Shown piece after piece: positions 1 through 6,421 of a DNA stretch of 64,000 nucleotides. This stretch comes from Porphyridium purpureum (Eukaryota): the NCBI GenBank assembly GCA_008690995.1, contig VRMN01000003.1, forward strand, positions 1,860,001-1,924,000, written 5' to 3'. Position numbers and translations under genes: made by a program. The stretch's first letter is position 1. The number at the start of each line of letters is the position of its first letter. The notes beneath the pieces were generated by a model. That model did not search any database and had not been told where the DNA came from. It was given only the letters and a program-made list of their open reading frames with translations.

Positions 1-363
1 CACAACCGCGCACGGCACTGTGACGTGCCCCTTTTTGTCCAAGCGGCAGACACCGGATTGAGGCGACGCGCAACGTCTGTGCGCACCACGTGCAAGATGT
101 CTCCCACCGCGCATCACGCGCACAACACACAGCGCACGTGCGGACTTGCACACCGCGCATGCCATCTTACCCAAGACCATTCCTTCGTCATGAGTCTGTG
201 TGAGTGTATGTGAGTTTCCTCTCTCTTGCCTTCGTCGCAATCTCGCATTTCAGTCCTCCCCTTCTCCCGCGCGAGTTTCTACGATCGGCGGCTTACACGC
301 GCACTGTACCTTATCACGAAAGTCAGTCGCACGCATGATTCGCGGGTGTACAGTGCGCGATCG

Positions 364-369
364 ATTCTC
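364..369. repeat. Left target-site duplication ATTCTC (right copy 6305-6310; could be 8 bp CGATTCTC, 362-369 / 6303-6310)
   Basis: The same hexamer immediately flanks both outer LTR ends. Confidence 0.85.
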
Positions 370-666
370 TTTGATGATAGCGTCTTCGTGAAGCACGCGT
401 ATACCAAACGTGTACCAATAGTAAACTACTGGTGTCTAGCTGAAGCAAGAGGTCCACAACAAGACGACTTTACTCCTTAACACAACCTAGCTCTTACCTC
501 AAAAGGAGACAGAGCGCCGACTCGTCGGCCGTCTCTCACACTCTAATGATATACTACTGTGGTTAACCATTACGGTCACCAACCAACGGAGAGTTGTCAT
601 CATTAAGTATTTGATGACTCCACATCACGTCATCAGGCAGGCAGAGAGGGATGACTATATTCCACG
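370..666 (-). repeat. 3' LTR (297 bp; internal TG..CA core 372-664)
   Basis: Matches 6008-6304 at a constant offset of 5638 with no mismatch found by eye. Lies downstream of the ORF and abuts the PPT. Confidence 0.95.
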
Positions 667-678
667 CACCCCCTCATC
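667..678 (-). promoter_or_regulatory. Polypurine tract
   Basis: Minus strand GATGAGGGGGTG immediately precedes the 3' LTR; this is the typical copia-like GAGGGGG tract. Confidence 0.8.
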
Positions 679-706
679 ACTTCTGCGCTGGCTGCAAAGG
701 AACGAA

Positions 707-3700
707 TCACACTCGCTCGACAAGGTGCCAGCGGGTGTACGGATCATTGTCACGCGACATTTTCTCATCATCATGGCTGTACGCATAGCCGCGCATGCCA
801 GCGTCATCGTCGCAGTCGTCGGGCTGCATGAGCATCGCGAAGGCGTTGCCACGGTTTGCGGCGGAGCGAGCATGCGTCATACGCTGGGCGATGCCAAGGG
901 ATAAGCTTGCACCGTACAGGCCCCACGCGGCTGCATGGCCGCGAAACACGTCGGTGGCAATCGGCTTCGTCAAGCCGTCAGCGACGTTGTCGCGCGTAGC
1001 GACATAGACGAACCTGACGAGTCCGTCCGCTGCTATCTCGTGCAACCATCTCAGAGAGATGCGTTGCATCTTTGGCGCATGCAGTAGCCGGTCACTGTGG
1101 CCGCGCTCCACCGCGCGCAAAGTCGACTCGTTGTCGCACCGCACAACGATCGGAGGCCAGCGCCTCAAAAGTTCTTCCGCCAGTGTCGCCACTGGGAACA
1201 CGCTGCCTTGCGCTGCGTCGTGCAGCGCTACCAACTCAGCCTCGGTCGTCGAGGTGCTGACGCGCCGCTGGCGCCGACTGGTCCAGTCTACAAGGTGTCG
1301 GCATCTGCCATTCGATATGAAGAGCACGGCGCCGCTCGTGGATGACGGTGCCGAAAAGTCGGCATCAGCCCATGCGTGCAACCGAACGTCGCGACTGCCT
1401 GTCGCGGGTATGTCGTATTGCAGACAGACGTCCGCATGCTTCTTCAGATACCCGACGATCTCGTCGAGCGCGCGATCCGCGCTTGGCCCCCACCGGTCGA
1501 CATAACGCGCCACATGCGCCGTGGCATAAGCGATGTCTGCTCGCGTGGTTCGGCTGAGCCACAGCAGTTGGCCAATCACAGTTCGCTTGTTTGTCGGGCA
1601 CGCGCGCCCGCCGGGACCATTGTCGTCGACCCGCTCGCTGAGTGGCGTGCTGCGCACGCGCAAGTTGTCCGCGGTGTGGCCGTTCGCCACATGGGTGGCG
1701 TACACCCCCGAATCCAATACCCATCGGCCGCCGTTGCGATAGATGTGCATGCCGAGATACTTGATAGGGCGCGTACGCGCCGAGTCTGCAATGTATTCGA
1801 CCTTCTGGTCGATTCTGAAAACGGTCTTCAGTTGTTTGACCGCCACTCGTACCGCATCCGTATTGCCGAAGAGTGCGCCATCGTCTACGTACATGCTCAG
1901 CGTGAGCATGCTGCCGTTTGCGCCGCGGCGCCAGTACTGGTTCTTGTCCGCGTTGGATTCTTGCCATCCAAGCCGCCGGGCACGCTCGCGAGCGTCGTGG
2001 CTGAAGTCATTGCCGCTCCGTTTCATTCCGTACAGAGCCTGCGGTAGCTCGACGACAGGCTCGCTACACGCGGCCATCTTCCTGTAGTCAGCTTCGCTGA
2101 CTAGACCCTTCACGACCGGGACCAGGTCGCGCAGATATCCGAATGTCGGACGGCCGCCCAATGGTGCACTGGGGTAGGCACACGTTACATCGAAAAAGGC
2201 GCCGTCGGCGGATGGTCCATGGAGCATGAGCGCCATGCTCATCGAGGCACGGATCGCCAGCAAACCTGGTGGGCGATCAAAAGGGTACGGTTCTTCGCGC
2301 GCGCGACGCCCATCGGCGTCCAGCACGACGCATCCTTGCGCGACGATGCGGCACTTCGTCTTGTGGAACGACGAAGGCATTTCTGAATTCTTCTTGTTGA
2401 AGAGGAGCTTCAACTTAACGAATTGCGCGTTCGGAACGCGCGCCGCCACTGCCTTGTCCATCGTGCGGCGGAAAGGCAGAGCGCCGGTGCTGCTGAGCGC
2501 ACGAAGCTCGGATGCTAATGCATGGCGGCCGGCGGGCGTGGCCATCGCCACCGCTGTGGCCACAACTTCTGCCACCCCCAGACCTGCCGCTTCGTCCTCT
2601 GGTCCCCCTGTCGCCGCGCTTGTATACGTTGCGTCGCTGCTACTCTCTGCTCGCGTCGCGTCGTTCCGCGTCGCGTCGCTCGCTGCTGCTGCGTGCACTG
2701 GAAGCACACCCAGTTCCGCTGCGCGCGCGCGCAAGCCGGCTGGTTTGCGGCCGCGCATGAAGAATGCTGGCCTACCCGCGATGGCAAGCCAGTCCTCACC
2801 AAAACGGGCAATGCCTTCGGATATGGCAATGTCCTCGGCCGGACTCCACGGCAGCTCAATGCGCCGATACTGTGCTCGCGACGCGAGCTTTCCGTGCTCG
2901 TCTCGGTCGCACTGGCAGTGCATTTGCCTGCATGTGCCGTCACCAGTGTGACGTCGGCTGGGCGCCGGACCCAAAATGCATTTCTCGCATTCGGTGCTCC
3001 CACCGACTATTTTCTTGCACTGTGTGTAGAATGCACGGTCCGGTGCATTGTCGCGTGCTCGCGACCATTGATCACCCGTCGCAATGGCCTCATCCGGAGG
3101 CCGCAGTGCCAAACGTCGCAATGGCCACTTGTCGGGAAGTGGCTTCCATTCGCCGACCTTCCTGATCGCAGATGGCCGCAAGTCGGCAATAGGCAGGGCG
3201 AGCAGGTTTATGGGCTGCCGCGGGTCATTCGGCCTCGGTGCCGTGAACCCAACGACGATTGCAGGCAAGCCTTTCGGCTCAAATTTGCCGCGGCTCTCAT
3301 CGTATATGAGAATGCCGCTCCCGAATCCAGGGATGGGCTTGTGCCATGTCAGACCGAGCCGTTGCTCGAAGCTGGTCTGCTCCTGCTTTGCGCCGCGCCA
3401 GGCAAGGTTTCTGGCCAGGCAAAAGTAGGCGGCGGCGAACGGATACCACGCGGTCGGCAAACCAGACTGCATCAGCAGTGCTCGCACTGCTCCGTTCAAG
3501 TCTGCGTGCTTGCGTTCATGCGTCGCGTGCGTGTTCGCCCGGTACGGTACACCAGTGACTTTCTTCACGCCCTTTTCCGCGATGAATCCGTCGAATTCGC
3601 CCATGAACTCGCGGCCCTCGTCACACCGCAACACTCGTGGCCAATCACCACGTCCGCGCTGCAGCTCCGTCAACCCGCGAATGCACTCAGCGGCGGACTT

Positions 3701-5761
3701 GTCCGCCAGCCCAATTGCTGAGAACCACCCAGTGGCTTCGTCGAGGTGAGTGAGCAGCCACCTGCTGCCCTCCACGGCTGCCAGTCCGGGATCCACAATG
3801 TCAATCGACACCACGTCGTTGAACTCGCGCGCTCGTCCGCGCTCTTTGCCAACCGAGTCGTCTCGCCTCACAGCACGCGCGCGCCGCAGCTTTGCCGCGC
3901 TGCATATTCCGCACGTGTCGCGCGACGGCATGTGCAGAACGCAATGGTCCTGCTCTACATGCTCAGCCTCGGCTGTGCCAAGACTGTGACCGCCGATGGT
4001 CATTTCGAAGCGGTTGGTTCGAAGCCAATCGAGACCGATCACGAGGTCATTGTGGCCATTGTACACGACCACGTCCTGCTGCTTCTCTGCTGAATCCAGC
4101 ACCGCCAGATTCACTGTCGCGCGCCCGCGAGACATGCACTGCGTGCCGTCTGCCAATCGAATGGTCAAGGCATTCGCGGTGCTATTTGTGCGCACTCGCA
4201 CCATCGCGCATGCGCTCTCGCTCAGAAAGGTGTGCGTTGCGCCGGTATCGATGACTGCTTTCATCGCCCGGCCGTTCACCCAAGCATTCACCTTGAGCAA
4301 CCCTTTGCCCGCACTGGCGGTCATCAACTCGGCTCCGCCGAGATTGGCATCGCGATCATCGCGCCTATCTGCACAGTTGTGCGTCGCTGGCCCCCACACG
4401 GAGCACCGATGGCAGTAATAGCGCCCACGCTGATTACTCTTCTTGCCATCTTGTTGCGACTTCGGCGTCTGTCGCGGTCGTGGTCTACTGGCACCGCCTC
4501 GTTGCGGTGCGCCACGCTTCTGTCCGCGCCCACGCGCGTCGTTCTGGCCGCCACCACGGTTCCAACCGTGCGTGCTCGGCTCTCGCCAGCCGCCGTCTCG
4601 TCCGTCCGCGCGGCTCTGCGCGTACTGCTCTGCATGATTCGCACGCAGGTTCCGGTGCGGTCCAGCTGGTGACCATTGGTCATGCTGTTGCTGTTGATAC
4701 TCGTTCGAGCGATCCCGCTGGAAGTCGTTGTATCCTCGTTCGTGCACCCGTGCGCGGCTGCCGCTGGCGGTGCCCAAGTCCATTGGCACCGGACCATGCT
4801 GGTTATAGTTCATCTGGGGGTGGTATGCAGGCTGCATGGCTGACGGGTACGTGCGTGCTGTGATGGGCTGCTGGTCTCGACCACGCTTAAATATGACTTT
4901 GTCGGCAACTAAAGCCAAACGCAAAGCGTCGTCATAGGTGGGAGGGAAGTGAAGCGCTACGTGAGTGGCAATAGAAGTGTCAAGAGATTCTGTAAAATAG
5001 TGAAGTTTATCTTTGTCTACCAAATTTGGTATACGCAGACAAACTTCACTAAATGCAGCTTCAAAATCTTGGACACTCATTGCACCCTGCTTCATCTTTT
5101 GCAGTTCATCCCGCACGTCATTTTCTGTTTCTTTTGGCTCGAAGCGCCGCTGAAGCGCGAGCAGAAACTCTTCTACCGAGGTGGGTCTCTGATCAGGTTG
5201 TAATGCCTGGTACCAGAGTTGCGCCAATCCGAAGAGGTGAGTCGAAAGCGTCGACACTGCTTCCTCTTCCTCGGTTTCCGTCCAAAGACGGCCCTGCGAC
5301 CGCCAATCCGAGCGCGCCGGGTTGTACACCCGCGAACGCGCTGCTGCCGTCCAGGTCATAATGGCCGCAGTGGATCGCTCGCCGCCATAGTACAGCATGG
5401 CCGCAGGGCGCATGCAGCTCGGCAAAGCGCCACTTCCACCGGATCCATCGCGAAGCGCCCTCAGACGAACGTTCTCGCTCCGCAGCTCGGCGAGCTCACT
5501 CTGAACAATCGCCGTCCGGGTATTCAGTTCGGTCGCCATCTTGGCGCCGAATTCCTCCGAGAGTTGGCGATGCATTTGGGCGTATGCCGCATTCAGCATC
5601 GCCGCCATCTCTCGTTTCGTTTCCTCGCGCGCGGACTCGCGCCGCGCACTTGCTGCCGCGCCAAGGCGGGTTGCCGAGGCGTTTGCACCACCGCGTGCCG
5701 GCGACGGTGTTGCTGGGGTACTAGCACCCGCAGCCCTATCCATGTCATATTCCATGACCAA
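707..5761 (-). CDS. Gag-Pol polyprotein (Gag, aspartic protease, integrase, Cys/His cluster + Myb-like domain, reverse transcriptase, RNase H), 1684 aa
   Basis: Gag: LFGLAQLW..QGAMSVQDF..PVPMDLG. PR: VIDTGATHTF..VIGLDWL. INT: HCVLH..CGIC, SID, RCDEGREF, HERKH. RT: KCRIVAQG, FDVTCAY, QALYGMKRSG, MYVDD. RH: WADADF, STTEAE, CDNES, NVADGLTK. The frame is uninterrupted. Confidence 0.96.
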   Translation of the reverse strand: MVMEYDMDRAAGASTPATPSPARGGANASATRLGAAASARRESAREETKREMAAMLNAAYAQMHRQLSEEFGAKMATELNTRTAIVQSELAELRSENVRLRALRDGSGGSGALPSCMRPAAMLYYGGERSTAAIMTWTAAARSRVYNPARSDWRSQGRLWTETEEEEAVSTLSTHLFGLAQLWYQALQPDQRPTSVEEFLLALQRRFEPKETENDVRDELQKMKQGAMSVQDFEAAFSEVCLRIPNLVDKDKLHYFTESLDTSIATHVALHFPPTYDDALRLALVADKVIFKRGRDQQPITARTYPSAMQPAYHPQMNYNQHGPVPMDLGTASGSRARVHERGYNDFQRDRSNEYQQQQHDQWSPAGPHRNLRANHAEQYAQSRADGRDGGWREPSTHGWNRGGGQNDARGRGQKRGAPQRGGASRPRPRQTPKSQQDGKKSNQRGRYYCHRCSVWGPATHNCADRRDDRDANLGGAELMTASAGKGLLKVNAWVNGRAMKAVIDTGATHTFLSESACAMVRVRTNSTANALTIRLADGTQCMSRGRATVNLAVLDSAEKQQDVVVYNGHNDLVIGLDWLRTNRFEMTIGGHSLGTAEAEHVEQDHCVLHMPSRDTCGICSAAKLRRARAVRRDDSVGKERGRAREFNDVVSIDIVDPGLAAVEGSRWLLTHLDEATGWFSAIGLADKSAAECIRGLTELQRGRGDWPRVLRCDEGREFMGEFDGFIAEKGVKKVTGVPYRANTHATHERKHADLNGAVRALLMQSGLPTAWYPFAAAYFCLARNLAWRGAKQEQTSFEQRLGLTWHKPIPGFGSGILIYDESRGKFEPKGLPAIVVGFTAPRPNDPRQPINLLALPIADLRPSAIRKVGEWKPLPDKWPLRRLALRPPDEAIATGDQWSRARDNAPDRAFYTQCKKIVGGSTECEKCILGPAPSRRHTGDGTCRQMHCQCDRDEHGKLASRAQYRRIELPWSPAEDIAISEGIARFGEDWLAIAGRPAFFMRGRKPAGLRARAAELGVLPVHAAAASDATRNDATRAESSSDATYTSAATGGPEDEAAGLGVAEVVATAVAMATPAGRHALASELRALSSTGALPFRRTMDKAVAARVPNAQFVKLKLLFNKKNSEMPSSFHKTKCRIVAQGCVVLDADGRRAREEPYPFDRPPGLLAIRASMSMALMLHGPSADGAFFDVTCAYPSAPLGGRPTFGYLRDLVPVVKGLVSEADYRKMAACSEPVVELPQALYGMKRSGNDFSHDARERARRLGWQESNADKNQYWRRGANGSMLTLSMYVDDGALFGNTDAVRVAVKQLKTVFRIDQKVEYIADSARTRPIKYLGMHIYRNGGRWVLDSGVYATHVANGHTADNLRVRSTPLSERVDDNGPGGRACPTNKRTVIGQLLWLSRTTRADIAYATAHVARYVDRWGPSADRALDEIVGYLKKHADVCLQYDIPATGSRDVRLHAWADADFSAPSSTSGAVLFISNGRCRHLVDWTSRRQRRVSTSTTEAELVALHDAAQGSVFPVATLAEELLRRWPPIVVRCDNESTLRAVERGHSDRLLHAPKMQRISLRWLHEIAADGLVRFVYVATRDNVADGLTKPIATDVFRGHAAAWGLYGASLSLGIAQRMTHARSAANRGNAFAMLMQPDDCDDDAGMRGYAYSHDDEKMSRDNDPYTRWHLVERV

Positions 5762-5991
5762 ACACTGGGCGCGTCGCGCTCACCAGTTGCGCTTCGAGCG
5801 CCTCTTTTTTTTCCTTCTCGATGTTCGCGGCGCCGATCAGCGTCTTGGCTGTCGCGCTGCCACAGTCGCTTTTCCAAAGCGTGATCGAGGGTAGAGTTGG
5901 GGAATGACCGAATGATAGAAACGCAACCACAATAGGTGGTTAGTCAAGCAAGCAAGAAGAAGAAAGATGAGGGAAACACCACAGCGCAAAG

Positions 5992-6007
5992 GCTGGGCTC
6001 ATAACCC
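5992..6007 (-). promoter_or_regulatory. Primer-binding site complementary to the anticodon arm of initiator tRNA-Met (half-tRNA priming)
   Basis: Minus strand reads GGGTTATGAGCCCAGC. Plus strand GCTGGGCTCATAACCC resembles the tRNA-iMet anticodon stem-loop (CAT anticodon). Same PBS type as Drosophila copia (GGTTATGGGCCCAG) and Ty5. Confidence 0.85.
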
Positions 6008-6304
6008 TTTGATGATAGCGTCTTCGTGAAGCACGCGTATACCAAACGTGTACCAATAGTAAACTACTGGTGTCTAGCTGAAGCAAGAGGTCCACAACAA
6101 GACGACTTTACTCCTTAACACAACCTAGCTCTTACCTCAAAAGGAGACAGAGCGCCGACTCGTCGGCCGTCTCTCACACTCTAATGATATACTACTGTGG
6201 TTAACCATTACGGTCACCAACCAACGGAGAGTTGTCATCATTAAGTATTTGATGACTCCACATCACGTCATCAGGCAGGCAGAGAGGGATGACTATATTC
6301 CACG
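6008..6304 (-). repeat. 5' LTR (297 bp; internal TG..CA core 6010-6302)
   Basis: Copy of 370-666. Followed directly in element orientation by the PBS. Confidence 0.95.
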
Positions 6305-6421
6305 ATTCTCCTGTTGCGCGTGGAGCGCGGGGGGTGGGGCTCGGCTATGTTGGATTCAAGGATCACATGGAAATGTGTGTATGGATGGATGGAAGACACA
6401 ATGAGGTGCGAGAATGGCCAG

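Follow-up and report, generated by a model that had tools for sequence, protein, structure and literature searches.

We found that an intact LTR retrotransposon of Porphyridium purpureum encodes a single, divergent Myb-type repeat between its copia-type integrase and its reverse transcriptase (RT), and that this Myb-like feature is real and conserved across element families. The element occupies positions 369-6304, minus strand, of the window, as we call the whole 64,000-nucleotide stretch of DNA analysed, and its features are the following:

6303-6310, no strand: target-site duplication, left copy (5 bp at 6305-6309; up to 8 bp at 6303-6310)
6007-6304, minus strand: 5' LTR, 298 nt, 100% identical to 369-666, its outer 1-3 nt ambiguous with the target-site duplication
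5992-6007, minus strand: primer-binding site, complementary to the anticodon arm of initiator tRNA-Met
707-5755, minus strand: single gag-pol ORF of 1682 aa with no stop or frameshift (stored protein P0017)
4907-5272, minus strand: Ty3/Arc-type capsid domain (Ty3_capsid E 1.2e-10, Retrotrans_gag E 3.6e-12; its profile matches Ty3 Gag 6r22, E 7e-8)
3995-4300, minus strand: aspartic protease of the Gypsy/DDI1 type with an ILG-type motif (gag-asp_proteas E 1.2e-10; motif scan; DDI1 matches)
3110-3946, minus strand: integrase of the Ty1/copia type with HHCC finger, DDE core and SH3-like region (rve E 4.1e-8; closest solved structure 7z0h_W, E 4e-7, which we take to be the Ty1 integrase)
2909-3028, minus strand: C4-H-C3 Cys/His module, likely zinc-binding from its sequence (aa 918-957; Tyr at the first ligand in the window copy)
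2708-2866, minus strand: Myb-type repeat, single, divergent, TRF/Tbf1-like (aa 972-1024)
905-2575, minus strand: copia-type RT plus RNase H (RVT_2 E 4.8e-5, below the cut-off)
669-675, minus strand: polypurine tract, read from the sequence
369-666, minus strand: 3' LTR, 298 nt, identical to the 5' LTR
362-369, no strand: target-site duplication, right copy (5 bp at 364-368 if the LTR has 298 nt; up to 8 bp at 362-369)

The Cys/His and Myb-like peptides that the initial annotation had placed between integrase and RT both lie in the 707-5755 minus-strand ORF. Pfam matches along the polyprotein came in the order Ty3_capsid/Retrotrans_gag, gypsy-type protease, rve, a weak Myb and RVT_2, and the succession of protease, integrase, RT and RNase H (PR-INT-RT-RH) is that of Ty1/copia elements (Pseudoviridae). 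The RT was matched by RVT_2 and not by RVT_1; RVT_2 was found across the relatives, reaching E 1e-20, and the window RT-RH was 50-57% identical to those of two sister families. Assignment of the integrase SH3-like region relied on SH3_retrovirus matches obtained in relatives only. A copia-type Gag and an LLS-type protease were not found, their places being taken by the Ty3_capsid match and the ILG-type motif, while nearly all copia proteases have LLS according to a section of PMC2774666. Several distant relatives keep an LLS protease, and the combination of Ty3-type capsid and ILG protease is common to the Porphyridium clade. Since a Ty3 Gag-like capsid and a DDI1-type protease are joined here to a copia-type integrase, the sequences point to an apparent chimera of a gypsy-derived gag-protease and a copia pol. 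Single-sequence PDB searches with the capsid and the RT-RH gave no informative match. A Gag zinc knuckle (4370-4415, minus strand) has atypical spacing and no zf-CCHC match in families 1 and 2, and is canonical in family 3; among relatives, P0088 carries CCCH zinc fingers before the protease (aa 735-822) and P0057 an AAA_28 kinase-like domain after the RT-RH (aa 1213-1375). The database proteins closest to the polyprotein were named P. purpureum by their sources and fell into three clusters of 16, 4 and 2 members.

Two readings of the LTR termini fit the sequence, a 5-bp duplication with CG...AG ends or one of up to 8 bp with TG...AA ends, and neither gives TG...CA, the usual arrangement, to which the Zam clade is a known exception (PMC3601003, in part). 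Three other junctions in sequencing run X2 matched through position 369, which favours the 5-bp/CG...AG reading at that end. The LTR ends are probably non-TG...CA, and CG...AG with a 5-bp duplication is most likely; a TG lies just outside the repeat, directly after the polypurine tract. Positions 6007-5995 are the 3' 13 nt of an initiator-tRNA probe given in part of PMC11230868, and we infer half-tRNA priming from initiator tRNA-Met. An internal initiator tRNA-Met match of this kind and a half-tRNA-Met primer are described for the Osser, Bryco and Gymco-II copia elements in sections of PMC6317226; the window element differs from these by its Ty3-type capsid and ILG-type protease, and our tree was built without a reference Osser sequence. 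GalEa-like copia elements of red algae (PyRE10G, CoPorcru1/2) have already been reported from Porphyra and Porphyridium (PMC3587641, in part). The primer site of metazoan GalEa is, by the relevant portion of PMC5445492, the tRNA-Met 3' end, unlike that of the window element, and CoPorcru was compared by description only.

In run X2 the sequence of one contig passes directly from position 361 to 6303, 8 letters being assignable to either flank, and this contig thus represents an empty site (one run of four read). Because of this empty site and the identity of the two direct LTRs, we consider the insertion polymorphic and recent; part of the assembly paper (PMC6811547) puts LTR elements at 8% of the P. 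purpureum genome and describes a recent expansion. The insertion site lies in gene-dense DNA, about 110 nt past a predicted stop codon. Neither a telomere-type repeat array nor a tRNA gene was found in the window, and no motif shared by the loose ends of the three other X2 junctions (two of them merged into one consensus) was seen by eye. Near-consecutive accessions on single scaffolds (KAA8497378-84, KAA8493469-75 and KAA8490511-13, in one case from three different families) hint that copies of these families are physically clustered in the genome.

The Myb match exceeds what chance would give. PF00249 matched the window repeat with E 1.9e-4 and 22.0 bits (curated cut-off 24.4) over model positions 3-28 of 46, and in the same slot it matched families 2 and 3 (E 0.19 and 0.16), P0023 (0.036) and P0024 (3.3e-5; 24.3 bits for the cut-off of 24.4), so that all Pfam Myb scores remained below the curated cut-off; for P0030, P0126 and P0155 no Pfam Myb match appeared even at E 10. 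A profile search with the integrase-to-Myb alignment against 1.84 billion representatives listed 150 proteins and, with P0002 and P0004 added, 152 integrase relatives were examined. Eight of them, all named P. purpureum and each from a different family, carry the Myb domain in the same slot, in agreement with the earlier proposal of a Myb domain at the integrase C-terminus. Pairwise identity among the eight domains ranged from 16 to 63%. In a leave-one-out comparison, a profile built from seven families retrieved the slot of the eighth with 26-71 bits, a score reached by none of 200 shuffles for each of the eight. Both core Trp positions are kept in seven of the eight. Between families 1 and 2 the Myb slot is 48% identical, against 19% and 7% for the flanking linkers and 45-57% for PR, INT, RT and RH; the family 3 and window Myb domains share 28% identity, near that of their linkers (22-24%). 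Only the start of the domain is retained in P0027. P0152, a multi-repeat Myb protein of Triparma, is unrelated.

Word-based searches gave no short relatives, the Cys-Myb piece retrieving family 1 only; no relative was found in the viral contigs searched, PHROGs had no match for the Myb domain, and an atlas search with Cys and Myb returned Myb clusters at 0.83 or less, which serve as a lead only. Run X9, from a cold-spring metagenome, contains 0.71 of the element's sampled words. A metagenome scan yielded eight loci (L001-L008) with integrase cores about 30% identical, which are stand-alone genes, Polinton-like by eye, and Myb was absent from all eight. In the literature, searched by titles and the starts of abstracts, with Repbase, GyDB, REXdb and supplements outside this scope, we found no report of Myb/SANT on an LTR integrase, and the word 'Myb' does not occur in the main text of PMC2774666, PMC6317226 or PMC2836005.

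AlphaFold, given an alignment of element families only, predicted three helices (residues 14-27, 30-35 and 47-57) with pLDDT 77-90 over residues 11-60; mean pLDDT was 74.9, a level attained by only two of the five models. The best 15 Foldseek rows were all Myb/TRF domains, every one at E 0.64 or worse. By VIA-align, zebrafish TRF2 superposed with Z 5.8 (rmsd 2.4, 51 aligned), and in a wide structure search a bacterial GcrA domain (Z 5.8, rmsd 1.7, 49 aligned) tied with TRF1 (Z 5.4, rmsd 2.7, 51 aligned). Taken alone, these scores for a predicted model show only a common three-helix arrangement; considered alongside the Trp-spaced signal in the sequence, they lend support to a Myb-type assignment. 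The three-helix fold with a spaced Trp core that characterises the Myb/SANT superfamily is thus present in a predicted model, as distinct from a solved structure, and the single Myb-type domain initially proposed holds up. Its first Trp had been given the number 972; the residue is correct, but its number is 978 counted from the upstream stop and 970 from the ATG.

The proposed affinity to TRF also stood, the closest profile being the TRF-like Tbf1: the best full-length profile matches were budding-yeast Tbf1 (E 0.003) and S. pombe Tbf1/Trf1 (E 0.045 and 0.059). The telobox proteins Tbf1, TRF1/2 and NgTRF1 have, like the element domains, a single repeat with similar spacing, and they gave the best profile and joint-best fold matches. 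In TRF1 structures, the telobox Asp and Arg read bases. The element domains differ from the telobox proteins in these residues, the Asp being replaced by Ala or Ser in all eight families and the next Arg surviving in only one, and the telobox recognition helix LKDK(W/A)RN is not present. As both residues are missing, binding of telomere repeats by the TRF code is unlikely, and the telobox-type reading suggested at first was abandoned. In helix 3 an Arg is kept at the first basic position in seven of the eight families, and the helix otherwise varies between them. The Ala that replaces the third Trp had been taken to suggest a SANT-like, histone-binding domain; this argument does not follow, because Tbf1, a DNA binder, has Ala aligned to the third Trp of c-Myb in both yeasts. 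Estimated at sequence level, the pI of the domain is 8.4-11.2 in six of the eight families (8.7 in the window family) and 6.0 and 6.9 in the other two, and the acidic surface and loss of basic DNA contacts that mark histone-binding SANT domains were not seen.

The Cys/His module upstream had been recognised as a cluster, but one metal ligand had been missed. In the window copy, Tyr stands in place of the first Cys ligand; run X2 shows a Cys codon at that position, and the motif is complete in 11 of the 12 stored family-1 proteins tested. The strict pattern of four Cys, one His and three Cys occurred in 25 of the 152 integrase relatives, most of them without Myb, and in none of 3040 shuffles, mostly about 70 residues downstream of the integrase core. 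Relaxed scoring, including three proteins added by eye, gave 37 carriers, and 34 of 70 among the proteins reaching 200 aa or more past the core. Carriers include Myb-less P. purpureum families, an MMETSP transcript and metagenome contigs. In the window protein and the relatives scanned, no Pfam family matched the module, which is a conserved integrase-tail domain lacking a Pfam model, and to judge from its ligands it likely binds zinc. A single-sequence AlphaFold model of Cys and Myb together had a mean pLDDT of 38. Identity as a PHD finger was considered and rejected: the ligand order agrees, but the tail reads H-x(4-6)-C-x4-C-x-C, a spacing that differs from that of PHD fingers, and no PHD match was obtained.

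Capture of the Cys cluster and the Myb repeat as one module, as the initial annotation had it, was contradicted by their distribution. The sequences indicate two separate modules, each occurring without the other, of which C4-H-C3 is far older and wider: P0004, P0023, P0024 and P0155 have Myb without C4-H-C3, and in P0030 and P0126 the C4-H-C3 is degenerate. A conserved basic tail ending in (H/D)RRG comes right after Myb in P0004, P0023, P0024 and P0155. An RT-RH tree (LG+G4, rooted on three canonical copia-like rows) was built from 39 of the 70 long proteins, the others having too little RT. The six Myb carriers long enough for this analysis, together with P0025, formed a clade with 100/100 support, P0025 lying inside it without a Myb. 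On this tree the Myb requires two changes and is compatible with one origin, branching inside the clade being unsettled, and C4-H-C3 requires six changes and is spread over most of the 36-row ingroup. The simplest reading of these sequences is an ancestral Cys module, a single Myb gain and later losses of either. We infer that a wider copia lineage ancestrally had C4-H-C3 as its tail domain and that some of the Myb families have lost it, a loss that suggests partial functional overlap with Myb.

The slot between integrase and RT holds other sequences elsewhere. The distant relative P0112 has a zf-CW finger there (aa 1265-1306; E 1.1e-5, just under the cut-off) as well as a C4-H-C3; zf-CW is a histone-mark reader. 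A short basic motif, defined by a pattern drawn from the same sequences, was present in 6 of the 51 linkers examined (P0033, P0035, P0040, P0059, P0078 and P0089), none with Myb, and resembles the CENP-C motif and similar anchors to the nucleosome acidic patch. Scans of the window protein and of 60 long relatives revealed no chromodomain.

From the position of the Myb repeat and by analogy with other elements, its most likely role would be to anchor the integration complex on host DNA or chromatin as a tether, a proposal to which we give about an even chance. Proteolytic cleavage would leave both the Cys/His and the Myb modules on the integrase, where the Myb would stay on the tail and bias the choice of insertion sites. 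The repeat may have come once from a host TRF/Tbf1-like protein, into a slot behind the older C4-H-C3, with which it would overlap partly in function, and its basic third helix may bind DNA with relaxed or new specificity and not through the telobox code. Among known systems, Ty5 has a C-terminal targeting tail on its integrase, and Ty1 combines the copia order with an integrase targeting tail. Tal1/EVD (ALE4 copia) of Arabidopsis also has the copia order, and its integrase C-terminal region decides target preference, as stated in a portion of PMC11735389. These three, for which targeting has been demonstrated, rely on short motifs or single residues, whereas the window element has a folded Myb whose targeting role is proposed by analogy. 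Accessory domains at the integrase-tail position of other LTR elements have been tied to target choice in passages of PMC12477314 and PMC11735389. The CoDi-A copia elements of diatoms and the Ty3/gypsy chromoviruses resemble the window element in having an accessory nuclear-protein domain at the integrase C-terminus; in them it is a chromodomain, in the window element a Myb-type repeat behind C4-H-C3. CoDi-A, as excerpted from PMC2774666, shows that copia elements can capture such a domain. Sections of PMC7998251 describe a Myb/SANT-like domain linked to site-specific insertion in the proteins of R2 and R4/Dong, in R2 with adjoining zinc fingers. These are non-LTR elements whose Myb is N-terminal and whose endonuclease is restriction-like; the window element has LTRs, a DDE integrase and no evident fixed target.

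The Myb repeat might instead bind the element's own cDNA ends or LTR, assembling or stabilising the integration complex without any choice of target; Tc1/mariner transposases bind their own ends in this manner, through helix-turn-helix domains. We regard this as possible but unlikely. The fold is of the same class as the DNA-binding domain of Tc3 transposase (Z 4.8, rmsd 2.1, 46 aligned), the atypical look of the LTR ends means that end recognition may be unusual, and the divergence of helix 3 between families would be expected if each read its own LTR; yet Myb-less sister families have intact-looking polyproteins, and accessory domains at the integrase tail of other LTR elements are tied to target choice. 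Decidedly unlikely, in our view, is a SANT-like contact with histone tails or a host chromatin protein, tethering the complex without reading DNA. The missing telobox Asp and Arg, the two of eight domains that are neutral or slightly acidic (pI 6.0 and 6.9) and the zf-CW finger in the P0112 slot would agree with it, but six of eight domains are basic, in seven of eight the first basic position of helix 3 remains Arg, the third-Trp Ala is shared with Tbf1, and SANT structures score less well than Myb and TRF, if only by up to about 1.5 Z units.

The Myb could also be cleaved off or kept with the RT and serve a purpose other than integration, be it regulation of the LTR promoter or, by binding nucleic acid, assistance to reverse transcription. 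Unmapped protease cleavage sites leave room for such a role, and in family 2 hardly any linker separates the Myb from the RT-homologous region, which would suit it. Against this, the Myb lies upstream of the conserved RT start, a stretch that in Ty1/copia elements is the integrase tail, and we consider action outside integration quite improbable. That the Myb is a decaying passenger with no present function appears very improbable indeed: profile scores are weak, P0025 lacks the domain and the window copy lacks one neighbouring Cys ligand, but the repeat has been kept in frame in eight families, with both core Trp in seven, while the flanking linkers diverged.

LTR elements that carry an accessory domain on the integrase tail are already known; a Myb in this role was not described in the literature searched. 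A bolder interpretation, to which we attach little probability, is that these elements form an undescribed copia branch with a Ty3-type capsid and protease, non-TG...CA ends and a swappable reader slot on the integrase tail, in which the Myb would read a host DNA motif directly. The slot would then hold an uncatalogued C4-H-C3 zinc module followed by Myb in Porphyridium or zf-CW elsewhere, and an LTR integrase would be steered by its own captured sequence-specific DNA-binding domain and not by a host tether. Target choice by LTR elements is understood for few of them only, through chromodomains or short host-protein-binding motifs, and an active copia integrase with a folded Myb would add a new route to it. 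The relatives provide a natural series of tails (Cys only, Cys plus Myb, Myb only and Cys plus zf-CW), the first three of them in one small gene-dense genome, so that a role in targeting would be testable within that genome by comparison of insertion maps.
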